From an uncultured Phocaeicola sp. (lineage in GTDB: Bacteria; Bacteroidota; Bacteroidia; Bacteroidales; Bacteroidaceae): DNA of 64,000 nucleotides. The notes beneath the pieces were generated by a model. The model did not search any database and was not told where the DNA came from. It saw nothing but the letters and a program-made list of their open reading frames with translations. The translations under genes were made by a program, and so were the position numbers. The DNA lies in assembly GCA_944319745.1 (NCBI GenBank), contig CALUET010000019.1, positions 1,064 through 65,063 of the forward strand. The letters are read 5' to 3'. Positions 13,454 to 54,573 of this stretch are shown piece after piece; the stretch's first letter is position 1, and each line of letters opens with the position of its first letter.

Positions 13454-14236
13454 TTACACGATATTGAAATGCTGCAAGGCTCGTAGAATTCCGTCATCAT
13501 CTACCGGTGACGTGACGTAATCGGCGGCTTCTTGTACGGCAGGGGCTGCGTTTCCCATCGCAATTCCGGTACCTACGTGTTTTAACATAGGGATATCGTT
13601 GCCTCCATCGCCGAAGGCCATTGTGTCTTTCAACGGGATGTTGTAGTGATTTAATACGCGGTCGATGCCTAAACTTTTGTTGGTTCCTTCGGCAATAATG
13701 TCGGTAAACAGCGGGAACCACCGCATGGGAGTGCAATATTTAAGTACGGGGCCAAAGATATTCTTGTCGTATTTTTCATCGAAATACCCCATGATTTGTA
13801 AAACTTCTTTGCCTCTTGCGCATTCGGCCGGAAGAATGGCCGGGGGATTGATTTCGATCATTCTTGCAACCTCTTCGACGGACGGAGTAATACTTGTAAT
13901 AAACCACGTATCATCGTGCACGAATACGAACGCATGTTCGGGGTGCTTTTCGATGTAGGCTATCAGTCGGTTTACATCTTCTTGCGGAATACATTTTTTA
14001 TATATGTCCCGGTGATCGGCGGTAAAACAATGCGAACCGTTGAGGGTGATGTATCCGTCGAACGGGATGTAGCCGACGGCATCTTCCATTAAATGCTTCG
14101 GCCTTCCGGTTGCAATGAAAACTTTTATGCCCTTTTTCCGCAAAGACTCGATTGCCGTAAGGGTAGATTGTGGGATGGTATGGGTATTAAAGGAAACGAG
14201 CGTTCCGTCGATGTCGAAAAAAACAGCTTTTATCAT
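13454..14236 (-). CDS. Cof-type HAD-IIB hydrolase
   Basis: FFDIDGTL, IATGR, AFGDGGNDIPML. Start set at MIKAVFF (14236). Confidence 0.9.
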   Translation of the reverse strand: MIKAVFFDIDGTLVSFNTHTIPQSTLTAIESLRKKGIKVFIATGRPKHLMEDAVGYIPFDGYITLNGSHCFTADHRDIYKKCIPQEDVNRLIAYIEKHPEHAFVFVHDDTWFITSITPSVEEVARMIEINPPAILPAECARGKEVLQIMGYFDEKYDKNIFGPVLKYCTPMRWFPLFTDIIAEGTNKSLGIDRVLNHYNIPLKDTMAFGDGGNDIPMLKHVGTGIAMGNAAPAVQEAADYVTSPVDDDGILRALQHFNIV

Positions 14237-31630: not shown

Positions 31631-31927
31631 ATGGGATTATGGTCTATGAGAAAACCGCGTTCGTATCATCATGAGTATATTTATGTGGACGAACGTAAGG
31701 AAAAACTGCAAAAGATAGAGGAAAATGCAAAGCGTGATTTAGGCATGATCCCGCCAAAAGAGTTCTCTCCTGAAGATATTCGTGGAAAATTTATAGAAGG
31801 AACTACCCATCTGAAGCGCAGAAAGGCAAGCGGACGCAAGCCACTTGCTTTTGGTACAATTTTAATTCTTCTTATCGTGTTACTTTATTTATGGCATTAT
31901 ATAGTGACTGGTGACATCACTATTTGA
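31631..31927 (+). CDS. Conserved small membrane-anchored hypothetical protein
   Basis: RKPRSYHHEYIYVDERKE N-terminus, C-terminal TM helix; tightly packed before mutL. Confidence 0.7.
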   Translation: MGLWSMRKPRSYHHEYIYVDERKEKLQKIEENAKRDLGMIPPKEFSPEDIRGKFIEGTTHLKRRKASGRKPLAFGTILILLIVLLYLWHYIVTGDITI

Positions 31928-31945: not shown

Positions 31946-33829
31946 ATGAGTGATATTATTCGTTTGTTGCCCGATTCAGTGGCGAATCAGATAGCTGCCG
32001 GTGAAGTGATTCAGCGTCCTGCATCGGTGGTAAAGGAATTGGTTGAGAATGCAATTGATGCCGAAGCCCGGCATATAGATGTGCTGGTTACGGATGCCGG
32101 TAAGACATGCATTCAGGTGATTGACGACGGGAAAGGCATGTCGGAAACCGATGCGCGCCTATCGTTTGAGCGTCATGCCACCTCAAAAATCCGTGAAGCA
32201 TCCGATTTGTTTGCATTGCGAACGATGGGTTTTCGCGGAGAGGCCTTGGCTTCGATAGCGGCTGTTGCTCAGGTTGAGTTGAAAACTTGTCAGGAAGACG
32301 GACAGATTGGGACGTCTATTTCCATATCCGGTTCGAAATTTGAAGGACAAGAAGCCGTGGCATGCGGTAAAGGTTGCAATTTTTGTGTGAAAAATCTGTT
32401 CTTCAATGTCCCGGCACGCCGTAAATTTTTGAAATCCAATCAAACCGAATTGAGTAACATCTTGACGGAATTTGAACGGATTGTGCTGGTAAATCCGGAT
32501 ATCGCCTTTACCTTGCGTCACAATGGAACCGAGATGTTGAACCTTCCGCCTTTGCCTCTTCGGCAGCGCATTATGGGGGTTTTCGGAAAGAAACTCAATC
32601 AAGACCTGCTTCCGTTGGAAATCAATACAACAATGGTGCGCATACATGGATTTGTGTGTAAGCCCGAAGCGGCACGAAAAAAAGGGGCGCGTCAGTTCTT
32701 TTTCGTGAACGGGCGGTACATGCGTCACCCGTATTTCCACAAAGCAATAGCCGATGCTTACGAAAACCTGATACCCGTTGGCGAACAAGTTTCCTATTTT
32801 ATTTATTTCGAAGTCGATCCGGCCAATATAGACGTGAATATTCATCCGACAAAGACCGAGATAAAATTTGAAAACGAGCAGGCTGTCTGGCAGATTCTTT
32901 CCGCTGTTGTTAAAGAAACGTTGGGACGTTTTAATGCAATTCCTTCGATCGATTTTGACACGGACGGCATGCCGGATATTCCCGTGCTGGAGACTTCTTC
33001 GTATTCTGCCGTACAACCTCCGCAGGTGACTTACGATCCTTCCTACAATCCGTTTAATGTTTCTTCTAATCAGTCGCCTTCTTCATACGATTCGTATTCG
33101 CGCAAAAAGTCAACGCGATGGGAACCTTTCTTTGACGGACTGGATAAAACGGTGAAACGGGAGGAGGACTTTTCTGAATATCCCGAGGGAGCCGGTTCTA
33201 CGGATTTCCTTCCCGGGGTAGACAAGTCGGGAACAGATGAAAAAGATCATTTTGTGTTTCATGAAATATCGGTCTCTCATTATCAGTATAAAGGCTGTTA
33301 TATATTGACGTCCGTGAAGTCGGGGTTGATGATTATAGACCAGCAGCGTGCACATACCCGCATATTATACGATCGTTACATGCGTCAGCTTGAAGACCAT
33401 CAACACGTTTCTCAACGTCTGTTGTTTCCCGATATGGTACAATTTTCGCCGTCGGAGATCCCTGTTTTAGACGAGATTTCTGACGAGCTGATGGCGCTGG
33501 GTTTCGACTTCAGTAGCTTGGGAGGAGGAGCGTATGCCATTAATGCAGTGCCTGCCGGCATAGAAGGTCTGAGGCCGGAGGCGTTGCTTACCGAGATGGT
33601 TCGTACGGCTATGGAGAAAGGGACGAAGCTGAAGGAAGAAATTCAGAGCATGCTTGCACTGTCGTTGGCTAAAGCTGCGGCAATAGTCCCGGGACAGGTC
33701 CTGACAAACGATGAAATGAATAACCTGGTGGATGAGTTGTTTGCTTTGCCTACGCCTAATTATACACCCGATGGGAAAACGGTTCTTGCCGTGTTGAAAG
33801 ACAATGAAATTGAGAAACTATTTCACTAA
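31946..33829 (+). CDS. mutL: DNA mismatch repair protein MutL
   Basis: [38 protein letters not shown]. Confidence 0.96.
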
Positions 33830-33937
33830 ATATGCAACTTTTATGCAGCCGTATCGGATGCTCTTGACATATATCATGAAAATATTCATTTTTTATAAAA
33901 AGGAATTGCAGTATATTGCACGAAAAAGAAAAGGCTG

Positions 33938-33945
33938 TATCTTTG
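33938..33945 (+). promoter_or_regulatory. -7 promoter element TATCTTTG (ATTG about 19 bp upstream) with no ORF directly downstream
   Basis: Matches the Bacteroidetes sigma70 consensus; the next CDS is 450 bp away, behind a terminator. Confidence 0.65.
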
Positions 33946-33949
33946 CATT

Positions 33950-34230
33950 GTGGTTGTGAAACTACAAGAATATTTAGATTGTATTTAAGAATTTGTTAAG
34001 GTAAGTGATTTTTAGGTATTAGAAAAAAGAGGTAAAAAGTGATTTTTTATTTAAGTTTTCTAAGGTAAAAGTTTAGGTATTAGTAATAATTTAAGGTAAA
34101 AGTTTTCAGTTTAGTTTTCAGTAAGGTTTAGAAGATTCTTTTAAAGGTAAAAAGAAAAAAGGTAAGGATAACACGTAAATTTTAAACCATTTATGAGATG
34201 AAAAGAACCCTTAAAATGGGGGGTTCTTTA
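33950..34230 (+). ncRNA. Putative sRNA, C-poor, with nine AGGT motifs
   Basis: Bounded by the promoter at 33938 and hairpin AAAGAACCC..GGGTTCTTT at 34202-34229; no plausible ORF. Ends approximate. Confidence 0.55.
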
Positions 34231-34398
34231 GGATGTAGGCGGGTGTTCTGTTCAGAGCAATCGCTTTTTTATTTATGGATATTTCATCCTTTTGCTGAAA
34301 TAAAGTGTATTTGTTCCTTTGTATTCCCGTGTTTTTTTTATACTTTAGCCTTCCATACTTTAGGAATGTATTAAAAAAACGCTTAAATTGATGCCAAT

Positions 34399-36390
34399 AT
34401 GAAAAAGTATTATGCTTGTCTTTTATCTTTTCTACTCTGCAGCACAGCCATCTCAACGGCACAGGTTAAACTGATACCGCTGTTCTCTGATAATATGGTG
34501 CTGCAGCAACAAACTCAAGCTCCCATTTGGGGAGAGACAAAACCGGGGAAAACGGTGGAGGTCACTACATCGTGGGACAAAGAAAAATACACAGTTACGG
34601 CCGATGCGAAGGGTAAATGGATGGTAAAGGTTGCCACTCCCGAAGCCGGAGGCCCTTATTCCATCGTAATATCGGACGGTAAAAAAGTGACATTAGACAA
34701 TGTGCTCATTGGGGAAGTCTGGCTTTGTTCCGGTCAGTCAAACATGGAAATGCCGGTGGAAGGCTGGGGAAAAGTAAAAAACTATGAGCAGGAGATAGCA
34801 GATGCAAATTATCCGAACATTCGTTTTTTGCAGGTAACGGATAATACAAGTCCGCAGCCTTTGGCAGAGATGCAGGCACGTAATGACGGTTGGATGGTTT
34901 GTTCTCCGGAAACAGTAAAGGAGTTTTCTGCAACAGGCTACTTTTTCGGGAGAGATTTAAATCACTATCGTAATGTGCCGGTGGGCTTGATTGATTCGTC
35001 ATGGGGCGGTACGATAATAGAAGCATGGACGAGTGAGGAGGCTTTGAGTACGATTCCTGAGATGATGGATAATATTGCTGATGTGAAAAGCATGCCGTTG
35101 ACAAATGAAGAGCGGCAGGAGAAATATCGTCGGGATATGGAAACATGGGCCGATGTTTTCGCACAGACAGACAAGGGCTTCTCGAACGGAAAAGCTGTTT
35201 GGGCTGATCTTGCTTGTAATGATGCTTCATGGGGTACAATGAACTTCCCCGGCGGAATGGATAATCAAGGCCTGGGAGCTTTCGACGGCGTGGTATGGTT
35301 TCGGAAAGTAGTGGAGATTCCGGCTTCGTGGGAAGGGAAAGAGTTGCAGTTGAATTTAGGAATGATAGACGATAACGACTTCACCTACTTTAATGGAGTA
35401 TGCGTGGGGCATACGGAAGGGCCGGGCGTTATGCGGGAATATACCGTACCGAAAGATCTGGTGAAGGGAGGAAAAGCTGTGATAGCAGTCCGTTTGTTGG
35501 ATACGGGGGGCCTGGGAGGCATAAACGGCGCTCCCGAACAATTGGTACTGCAGCGCTCGAAGAAAGATAAAATCTCTTTGACCGGCCAGTGGAAATATAA
35601 GGTTTCATTGTCTTTGGAAAAACTTCCGGCGTTACCAATAAATACGGTGAATCAACCGAATATGGCAAGCGTGTTGTTTAATGCGATGATTCATCCGTTG
35701 GTACCTTTTGCCATAAAAGGAGCCATTTGGTATCAGGGAGAATCGAATTCAGACCGGGCTTTTCAGTATCGCGACCTTATGCCTTTGATGATTGCCGACT
35801 GGCGTAAGCAGTGGGGATACGAGTTTCCTTTCTATATGGTGCAGTTGGCCAACTATATGGCTCCGCAGACACAACCGGAAGAATCGGCTTGGGCTGAGCT
35901 ACGCGATGCGCAATATAATACACTTCATCTGCGTAATACAGGTATGGCAGTGATAATCGATATAGGTGAAGCGGGCGATATTCATCCTAAAAATAAACAG
36001 GAAGTCGGACACAGGCTGGCGTTGGCTGCACGTGCACAAACCTATGGAGAAACGATTTCATACTCAGGTCCGCTTTATAAGGGGTATCGCATTGAAGGAA
36101 ACAAAATCAGGATTTTCTTCAAGCATGCCAACGGCTGTCTGAAAGCAAGAAACGGAGGTGCTCTGAAGGGCTTCACGATAGCGGGAACAGATCATAAATT
36201 TTATGCAGCAACGGCGGAGATAGACGGTAATTCGATTGTGGTATATGCTCCCGAGGTTGCTTATCCTCTTGCTGTACGTTATGCATGGGCTAATAATCCC
36301 GACTGCAATTTGGTTGGAGAAGATAATCTTCCTGCGTCTCCTTTCCGTACGGACGATTGGGCAGGGATTACCTTCGGTAAGAAATATTAA
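34399..36390 (+). CDS. Sialate O-acetylesterase (SASA family) with inserted sugar-binding domain
   Basis: FSDNMVLQQ, GEVWLCSGQSNM, WGGT, WYQGESN, DIHPKNKQEVG, VRYAW; signal peptide. Confidence 0.88.
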   Translation: MKKYYACLLSFLLCSTAISTAQVKLIPLFSDNMVLQQQTQAPIWGETKPGKTVEVTTSWDKEKYTVTADAKGKWMVKVATPEAGGPYSIVISDGKKVTLDNVLIGEVWLCSGQSNMEMPVEGWGKVKNYEQEIADANYPNIRFLQVTDNTSPQPLAEMQARNDGWMVCSPETVKEFSATGYFFGRDLNHYRNVPVGLIDSSWGGTIIEAWTSEEALSTIPEMMDNIADVKSMPLTNEERQEKYRRDMETWADVFAQTDKGFSNGKAVWADLACNDASWGTMNFPGGMDNQGLGAFDGVVWFRKVVEIPASWEGKELQLNLGMIDDNDFTYFNGVCVGHTEGPGVMREYTVPKDLVKGGKAVIAVRLLDTGGLGGINGAPEQLVLQRSKKDKISLTGQWKYKVSLSLEKLPALPINTVNQPNMASVLFNAMIHPLVPFAIKGAIWYQGESNSDRAFQYRDLMPLMIADWRKQWGYEFPFYMVQLANYMAPQTQPEESAWAELRDAQYNTLHLRNTGMAVIIDIGEAGDIHPKNKQEVGHRLALAARAQTYGETISYSGPLYKGYRIEGNKIRIFFKHANGCLKARNGGALKGFTIAGTDHKFYAATAEIDGNSIVVYAPEVAYPLAVRYAWANNPDCNLVGEDNLPASPFRTDDWAGITFGKKY

Positions 36391-43774: not shown

Positions 43775-44128
43775 TCAGATTTTCCCTTTCATAAGTTTCT
43801 TGTTATACATGCTTGTTGCAATGGCAGCCCATATTATATGGATAGGCCACGTCAGCAATAGTCCAAATCCAAGTGTGAAAATTCCAACAATAAGATCTAC
43901 AATTATCATGATGATAGCGCCAAGTATGGTAGAATAAAACATTCCTATTGGACCAAAAAGAACAGCGAGTGCGATGGAGATGCCCATACTTTTAGGCGAT
44001 TTAGTAATTACAACGTTAACGTTTTCATTAGTATTTTCCATAAGTTTCAAAATAATGTATAAATATTTTCCTACTCTATTAAAGGTTTTCGGACTATCCT
44101 GTGACAAAGGTATCTTTAAATAATGCAC
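43775..44128 (-). CDS. Small membrane protein (TM2-domain-like start KSMGISIALAVLFGPIGMFY)
   Basis: Three hydrophobic segments; likely start at MENTNEN. Confidence 0.6.
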   Translation of the reverse strand: MHYLKIPLSQDSPKTFNRVGKYLYIILKLMENTNENVNVVITKSPKSMGISIALAVLFGPIGMFYSTILGAIIMIIVDLIVGIFTLGFGLLLTWPIHIIWAAIATSMYNKKLMKGKI

Positions 44129-54388: not shown

Positions 54389-54460
54389 TAGCCCGTGGGG
54401 GAATCGAACCCCCCTTTCAAGAATGAAAATCTTGCGTCCTAACCGATAGACGAACGGGCC
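54389..54460 (-). tRNA. tRNA-Glu (TTC)
   Basis: GGCCCGT acceptor, CAAGA-TT-TTC-AT-TCTTG anticodon arm, GGTTCGATTCC T arm; CCA not encoded. Confidence 0.95.
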
Positions 54461-54501: not shown

Positions 54502-54573
54502 TAGCCCGTGGGGGAATCGAACCCCCCTTTCAAGAATGAAAATCTTGCGTCCTAACCGATAGACGAACGGGCC
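54502..54573 (-). tRNA. tRNA-Glu (TTC), identical tandem copy
   Basis: Same 72-nt sequence as 54389-54460. Confidence 0.95.

Follow-up and report, generated by a model that had tools for sequence, protein, structure and literature searches.

CrcZ and CrcY of Pseudomonas are RNAs of ~400 nt that sequester Hfq/Crc by means of A-rich motifs (AAnAAnAA). In ToxI, the RNA component of type III toxin-antitoxin systems, units of 34–36 nt are repeated regularly in tandem, directly upstream of the toxin gene. How gut Bacteroidota regulate genes after transcription has been mapped only poorly. No canonical CsrA, Hfq or ProQ has been identified in Bacteroides, and the established global RNA binders there are small proteins of the RRM-1 type; one of these, RbpB, has only recently been shown to bind RNA globally. 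Purified RbpB binds single-stranded RNA. Its best motif in vitro, GUAGGAUA, is made up of G, U and A alone, and three copies of it are bound with a KD of 5.1 μM; a C/U-rich motif is not bound. In CLIP data, RbpB peaks lie on the 5' region of the FopS RNAs, which RbpB counteracts. The FopS RNAs are 65–70 nt long, consist of one seed and one terminator, and are encoded in 12–15 copies per genome. GibS, another RbpB-associated RNA of Bacteroides thetaiotaomicron, measures ~145 nt.

Here we describe a locus from an uncultured Phocaeicola sp. that is very probably a real and independent gene for a non-coding RNA of ~290–325 nt. It was found in a contiguous stretch of 64 kb (hereafter the window), in the 569-nt gap between mutL (31946–33829, +) and a SASA-type sialate esterase gene (34399–36390, +). 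Contigs identical to the window are present in ENA assemblies and in chicken-gut metagenome runs. A preliminary description of this DNA had proposed a non-coding unit from promoter to terminator at 33938–34230, with a resemblance to sequestering RNAs of the CsrB/RsmY type. Conservation in a sister species and RNA contigs from a family member both support such a unit, with wider limits: conserved DNA begins at 33864, and the RNA, as predicted from the sequence, extends from about 33950 to about 34272, or ~320 nt (Table 1).

Table 1. Predicted elements of the RNA gene and its upstream region in the window.
Element	Position	Strand	Remarks
Palindromic box TTGACATATATCAT (wTGAy-N4-ATCAw)	33864–33877		candidate site for a dimeric Crp/Fnr-type factor
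-33 element TTG	33916–33918	+	22 nt before the -7 box in 16/16 members
-7 box TATCTTTG (perfect TAnnTTTG)	33938–33945	+	family-invariant as TAnCTTTG; TACATTTG in L215
Predicted RNA 5' end and hairpin GUGGUU-GUGA-AACUAC (GNRA tetraloop)	33950–33965	+	from RNA folding
C-poor, weakly structured body with nine AGGU	33966–34163	+	first six AGGU kept in sister species
Conserved box AAGGAUAACA	34164–34173	+	common core GGAUAACA in 16/16 members
Hairpin 1 with flanks, AGAUGAAAAG-AACCC-loop-GGGUU-CUUUAGGA	34196–34233	+	stem 34202–34212/34219–34229, 11 bp
Hairpin 2 with U-run	34238–34272	+	hairpin 34238–34266, TTTTTT 34265–34270; intrinsic terminator

The most conspicuous feature of the unit is its composition. 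As the preliminary description had counted, the + strand contains exactly nine AGGT between 33999 and 34163 (at 33999, 34014, 34030, 34063, 34075, 34094, 34124, 34145, and 34160). These copies span 165 nt, and the rate across the window is about one AGGT per 370 nt per strand. Composition-preserving shuffles of 33990–34170 contain 1.1 AGGT on average. Since the count never exceeded 8 in 100,000 such shuffles, composition does not explain the presence of nine copies. The near absence of C on this strand was also reproduced. The 181-nt core (33990–34170) contains four C and is the sole stretch of the 64 kb with ≤10 C per 200 nt; C makes up 3.9% of the whole body. One motif variant had been listed four times, but the exact form, AAGGTAAAAG, occurs only twice, and the other two copies read AGGTAAAAAG. 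The extended motif shared by the repeats is AGGUA(UU/AA)AG. Tandem Repeats Finder detected only a weak signal in the unit (12 nt, 2.6 copies). The body folds no better than shuffled sequence (z = -0.95), and its AGGU motifs are predicted to be about half unpaired, with no greater exposure than the rest of the body.

A perfect TAnnTTTG octamer does occur at 33938, where a promoter had been placed. This octamer alone proves little because the window contains 68 copies against 58.6 expected; the spacing of 22 nt to the upstream TTG is that of a Bacteroides sigma-ABfr promoter. At the 3' end, the hairpin at 34202–34229 that had been taken for the terminator is real and forms an 11-bp stem, but the following hairpin at 34238–34266 with its TTTTTT is the better intrinsic terminator. 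For this reason we place the end of the unit near 34272. The second hairpin and its U-run are the probable primary 3' end; the RNA may have its end near 34236, past hairpin 1, or near 34272, at the terminator, or both ends may occur. Pairing of CCUUAAAU in hairpin 1 with the AUUUAAGG modules (8 bp, noted by eye) was considered and dismissed, as A/U-rich matches of this kind are expected by chance.

Comparison with a sister species provided a first measure of constraint. Its MutL protein is 86% identical to that of the window, and the order of mutL, gap and SASA gene is retained. In the alignment, positions 33999–34115 are 94% identical, positions 34187–34272 are 91% identical, and the promoter region is 82–85% identical. 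Identity is 57–60% at the third codon positions of mutL and the SASA gene, 50% in the first 36 nt past mutL, and 62% between terminator and SASA gene. Measured in this way, the unit is shown to be under purifying selection. The preliminary description had made conservation of the motif copies at the syntenic site a touchstone of its proposal. The sister species has kept the promoter, the hairpins and the first six of the nine AGGT and has lost the remaining three (34124, 34145, and 34160), which lie in a segment that is only 70% identical. Some copies are therefore dispensable. Among named MutL proteins, the nearest are at most 76% identical to that of the window, and the element is absent downstream of mutL in 80 species from this range of identity (≤76%), in which the gene order is not conserved either. 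A verdict of non-conservation from this 80-species synteny was overturned once closer and non-syntenic relatives were found.

These relatives came to light in chicken-gut DNA. Contigs from other organisms, at 80% likeness, match the window only at 33926–33962 and 34196–34233, and the ~240 bases between the two blocks are unrelated. Scanning a metagenome collection for the hairpin core returned sixteen loci with hairpin 1 and a second, terminator hairpin. Fourteen have enough upstream sequence to be compared and contain 8–12 AGGT and 6–8% C, while the other two end at a contig edge. The 5' box TAnCTTTGCAnnGTGGTTGTGAAA lies 250–290 nt upstream in 13 of the 14. About 100 further matches have 0–4 AGGT and no such box. 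Flanking proteins of the relatives point to P. plebeius-type genomes and to P. acetigenes. The nrdG neighborhoods of six further lineages, including Bacteroides gallinaceum, contain a member in every case. In all, we found 16 family members, which belong to P. plebeius, P. acetigenes, B. gallinaceum and further relatives. A family HMM trained on nine members, with the window and its sister left out, was searched with nhmmer; it matches the window at 33939–34270 over HMM positions 2–332 (E = 1e-32) and nowhere else in the 64 kb. The family RNA is probably encoded once per genome.

Most members lie downstream of the anaerobic ribonucleotide reductase genes nrdD-nrdG; the member in the window follows mutL. 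The genes downstream of the unit differ in identity and strand from member to member, and the unit is therefore independent of its neighbors. Two P. plebeius-like loci carry a 792-aa ORF inserted between nrdG and the RNA gene (L152, 7990–10368; L172, 4371–6749). There, the sequence upstream of the promoter differs, and the palindromic box is kept at the same offset. At three nrd loci, a cobalamin riboswitch (Rfam RF00174, 86–94 bits) precedes nrdD (L101, 3185–3375; L113, 8149–8334; L201, 6659–6848).

The members share an architecture rather than a fixed array. The predicted start lies ~5 nt after the -7 box and is followed by the 5' hairpin of 5–6 bp, closed by a GUGA tetraloop. Five of the hairpin pairs are kept in the family alignment, with one compensatory exchange of G–C to A–U and several G–U wobbles; L214 has a 5' end that differs from those of the other members. 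The body that follows is ~200–250 nt long and contains 6–12 AGGU, with 3.6–7.8% C in 15 of the 16 members and 13.2% in L210, which carries an insertion. Ninety-seven motif copies yield the family consensus (U/A)AAGGUA(UU/AA)AG. The spacing is irregular (9–36 nt). The number of motifs is held at 6–12, and their positions drift through small duplications and deletions; in L101, for example, a 19-nt duplication adds one copy. After the body come the GGAUAACA box, GAUG, hairpin 1 and the terminator hairpin, in this order. In both the window and the P. plebeius-type member, the sequence of the box is GUAAGGAUAAC (in the family alignment A2, the GGAUAACA box of L201 is misaligned). The stem AGAACCC/GGGGGUUCUU of hairpin 1 is invariant in all 16 members, and its loop is variable. 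Hairpin 2 shows compensatory changes at two pairs in the family alignment. Its G–U/A–U exchanges, which also distinguish the window from its sister, preserve pairing only in an RNA made from the + strand.

The B. gallinaceum member (L210, ~3440–3545) has a GC-rich insertion of ~100 nt inside the RNA body, with the rest of the unit intact. The insertion contains long inverted repeats (gtaggggcgtattgcatacgccc ... gggcgtatgcgatacgcccctac) and looks like a small mobile or REP-like element. In L147 (oriented 13905–14224), the body is of the P. plebeius type as in L101, but its terminator hairpin and the flank beyond it correspond to those of another widespread member, one represented in sequencing runs alone (loose end ATCGGCGGTGTTCAAAATGTGAACAATCGC). 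This arrangement suggests recombination between species within the gene.

A small protein as the product could be rejected. Only one ORF recurs, starting from an ATG before hairpin 1; its frame shifts between members and it is stopped after 1–2 codons in three of them. A search for a conserved ORF among the family members found none, and the earlier judgment that the unit holds no credible ORF stands.

Transcripts of the family can be recognized in public RNA data. The preliminary description had asked for a discrete transcript, and metatranscriptomes do contain contigs of the predicted extent for the P. plebeius-type member, L101. One chicken-gut RNA library contains a stand-alone contig of 302 nt that corresponds to L101 6547–6867. 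A second contains a contig of 289 nt (L101 6543–6850) at a depth of 49, against 5.9 for the neighboring gene. A gut metatranscriptome contig starts at L101 6534, exactly 5 nt past the -7 box. The mRNA of nrdG ends at L101 6298, where an adapter is attached in two libraries, and RNA depth is zero across L101 6348–6509, between nrdG and the unit, in all four libraries. Two further members, of partly known sequence, give RNA contigs of 352 and 316 nt. Since the 316-nt contig ends 7 nt past hairpin 1 and continues into adapter, there may be a second, shorter form of the RNA with its end at hairpin 1. Assembled contigs such as these do not show the strand, and we assign the RNA to the + strand because of the promoter and the G–U pairs. 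Among the RNA runs searched, none contained the sequence of the window; against the window itself, chicken-gut metatranscriptomes matched only hairpin 1, by reads from other family members. Discrete transcription is thus shown in a P. plebeius-type relative and may extend to the RNA of the window.

The upstream region suggests that this transcription is regulated. The center of the palindromic box lies ~80 nt upstream of the predicted start. In 16 of 16 members, the box precedes the -7 box by exactly 74 nt, and the sequence between the two has diverged. The window has only two wTGAy-N4-ATCAw sites, the other of which lies within a coding region. FNR-type regulators recognize the consensus TTGAT-N4-ATCAA, and the half-sites of the palindrome match it. 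Judged by its sequence, the site is probably bound by a Crp/Fnr-type regulator. The FNR-like palindrome stands at its fixed offset in the window, L084, L101, L113, L201, L210–L212 and L214–L216, and the RNA gene mostly adjoins nrdDG. Cur/BT4338 was discarded as a candidate regulator, as its published motif TATGTTnTAnAACATA is unlike the palindromic box.

How does this RNA compare with described systems? Rfam 15, searched over 33000–35000 at E values up to 10, returned only two sub-threshold chance matches, PyrR and SQ2397, and the family relatives had no Rfam match. Among RNAs of the same bacterial family, FopS and GibS share with it the sigma-ABfr type of promoter and an unstructured region rich in G, U and A. 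Unlike these, the RNA described here is ~320 nt long, contains 6–12 motifs, and has an additional 5' hairpin, the GGAUAACA box and hairpin 1. A comparison with FopS had been suggested earlier. Most members contain a core of FopS in the same sense, and the RNA differs from FopS/GibS in size, architecture and copy number; in the copy of the window, the match to this core is marginal (see below). Like CsrB/CsrC and RsmX/Y/Z of Proteobacteria, the unit is a stand-alone sRNA gene with a regulated promoter, a terminator and many short G-containing motifs; as in CsrB/RsmY, the number of motifs is preserved while their positions drift, and the RNA is proposed to act by titrating a global RNA-binding protein. 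The resemblance to CsrB/RsmY thus holds as a functional analogy. It does not extend to the motifs, which are AGGUA(UU/AA)AG in an unstructured, C-free strand and not (A)GGA/ANGGA in hairpin loops, or to any Rfam match. Since canonical CsrA has not been identified in Bacteroides, the partner must be a protein of another class.

CrcZ is the nearest match for how the family RNA would work. With CrcZ/CrcY it has in common a similar length, motifs in single-stranded stretches instead of loops, and a dedicated upstream regulator site. It differs from them in its motif, in the protein (Hfq being among those not identified in Bacteroides), and in the lack of any sequence relationship. Similar to ToxI, it would be a repeat-bearing non-coding RNA that binds protein; unlike ToxI, it has irregular spacing, no regular tandem array and no conserved neighboring gene, its neighbors being mutL, SASA or nrdG. 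By sequence, FopS/GibS are the closest systems, and in action, CrcZ and CsrB/RsmY, the defining features of which are absent here. A phage association gave one chance match in a coding region and otherwise none. In limited searches, no description of this RNA was found in the searchable literature or in the B. thetaiotaomicron transcriptome supplements. The sole literal match there (AGGTATTAG) falls in BTnc229 (NC_004663, 5262962–5263295; PMC7366714 supplement), which we rejected as a homologue because this 333-nt sRNA has none of the family landmarks. BTnc229 contains two short ORFs with related-looking products (MKKLERLFRKIGNADVHVWGY... and MAKKMSSLIRKILSEVGRNEMLSWGY...) and is perhaps not a regulatory RNA but an mRNA for small proteins. 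Taken together, the locus represents a new, uncatalogued RNA family of Phocaeicola-type Bacteroidaceae, probably one that sequesters a partner of a new class.

We surmise the following mode of action. The standard Bacteroides promoter and the palindromic site at its fixed offset would drive transcription of an RNA that begins with a protective or stabilizing GNRA hairpin and continues with ~200 nt nearly free of C. Because G cannot form G–C pairs where C is missing, this body would be largely single-stranded. The open strand would display its 6–12 copies of AGGUA(UU/AA)AG as a multivalent decoy, on which many copies of a single-strand-specific RNA-binding protein could load at once, and protein loaded in this way would be withdrawn from its mRNA and sRNA ligands. 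With its 5' hairpin, its open strand, many motifs that are steady in number and drift in position, and a regulated promoter, the RNA looks like a platform on which a protein specific for single-stranded RNA could assemble. From these features we infer both the sequestering and the partner: the RNA is quite possibly a multivalent protein decoy, for which proteins of the RRM-1 type (RbpA/B/C) are the best candidates.

Several observations bear on RbpB in particular. Like the published in vitro ligand GUAGGAUA, the repeated motif consists of G, U and A alone, and the GGAUAACA box resembles this ligand; such likeness is weak evidence because the affinities of RbpB are micromolar and its specificity is loose. 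The core GUAUUAGAUUUAAGGU of the FopS 5' region recurs in the same sense in most members, where only 0–4 of 500 shuffles reach the score. The match is marginal in the window copy (14/500) and not significant in the sister (122/500). Exact 16-mers of the FopS core occur in L210 and L212 and, among 212 loci, only inside family units. The 20-mer of the FopS R1/R1' seed is not found in the window at up to three mismatches. An antisense relationship to FopS, by which the RNA would be a sponge of the sRNA itself, was rejected, since reverse-complement scores are at background. A bolder proposal, which we put forward tentatively and regard as rather doubtful in its entirety, is that the family is an RNA antagonist of Bacteroidota RRM-1 proteins: an independently evolved, CsrB/CrcZ-like sponge made of concatenated FopS/GibS-type RbpB modules and switched by a Crp/Fnr-type regulator. 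If true, a signal (oxygen, redox or nutrient state) would release or re-route the RbpB–FopS control of polysaccharide utilization. We found no RNA that titrates an RRM-1-type protein in the searchable Bacteroides literature.

The same similarity to FopS could have a different meaning. The RNA might be a base-pairing sRNA with several seeds, a concatenated relative of FopS/GibS, in which the AGGUAUUAG...UUAAGGU modules would each be a seed that pairs with translation-initiation regions, for example of susC-type mRNAs, and represses them; several targets could then be engaged by a single RNA. Between the module and the published FopS seed R1' there is a same-sense match, which fits this explanation and a protein decoy equally well; near-matches of 17–23 nt to the FopS seed occur in most members, and the unstructured body recalls the long unstructured 5' seeds of FopS/GibS. 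Within the small sample of the 64-kb window, however, the complement of AGGTAWWAG occurs nowhere else, and the best pairing with a translation-initiation region (-31.8 kcal/mol) does not surpass the mean best value of shuffled sequences (-34.1 kcal/mol). Moreover, the window and its sister have a degenerate form of the seed-like module, and yet their copies are strongly constrained. We consider this explanation unlikely, if worth keeping in view; to our knowledge, about ten seed copies in one RNA are without precedent among base-pairing sRNAs. More improbable still is that the RNA serves as decoy or substrate for a single-strand factor with a taste for A, U and G other than an RRM-1 protein, such as an RNase E/G- or RNase Y-type endonuclease, ribosomal protein S1 or the 30S subunit, or a KH-domain protein. 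The architecture would be the same as for an RRM-1 decoy, and the invariant hairpin 1, GAUG and GGAUAACA boxes suggest at least one sequence-specific partner in addition to that of the repeats. Enterobacterial RNase E prefers to cleave at RN-WUU, a preference that GU-AUU within AGGUAUUAG fits. Nothing observed is specific to these proteins, however, and the only published Bacteroides protein–RNA data with a likeness to the motif are those on RbpB.

Explanations that deny the locus a gene of its own fare worse. Read as a cis-acting element, the unit would be a long 3' UTR of mutL or a leader or attenuator of the SASA esterase gene: read-through from mutL is possible, with no obvious terminator between its stop codon (33829) and the unit, and the hairpins lie ~130 nt upstream of the SASA start codon. 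This reading is largely refuted and very improbable. A promoter and a regulator box, both conserved, belong to the unit itself; elsewhere it stands behind nrdG, with unrelated genes downstream that are often on the opposite strand; in the P. plebeius-type member no RNA is found between nrdG and the unit; and the DNA from terminator to SASA gene is unconstrained. The locus is also AT-rich intergenic DNA with short direct repeats, as a non-functional low-complexity spacer, a decayed repeat or a DNA-level array of protein sites would be. Against such a view, which we regard as refuted and with next to no probability left to it, stand the 91–94% identity to the sister compared with the neutral sites, conservation from end to end across many species, a depletion of C that is specific to one strand, helices kept through G–U pairs that work only in the + strand RNA, and the discrete RNA contigs.

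The locus is a concrete candidate for an RNA of this titrating kind. The conserved regulator site offers a handle on when the RNA is made, and cultured carriers exist in P. plebeius, P. acetigenes and B. gallinaceum. Even with another partner, the family is an abundant RNA, so far uncatalogued, of gut bacteria common in humans and poultry, and it merits an entry in RNA databases, since annotation now leaves the locus blank.

The window contains a few other features. On the - strand, positions 44068–44102 match the DUF805b RNA motif (RF02914, 38 bits against a threshold of 35.6), and two tandem tRNA genes with identical scores (58.8 bits) lie at 54389–54460 and 54502–54573. An ORF of 98 aa without a Pfam match (31631–31927, +) is located between an OstA/LptD-like gene and mutL. 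Its position is retained in the sister species as well as in relatives at a greater distance (L083, L087, and L089).
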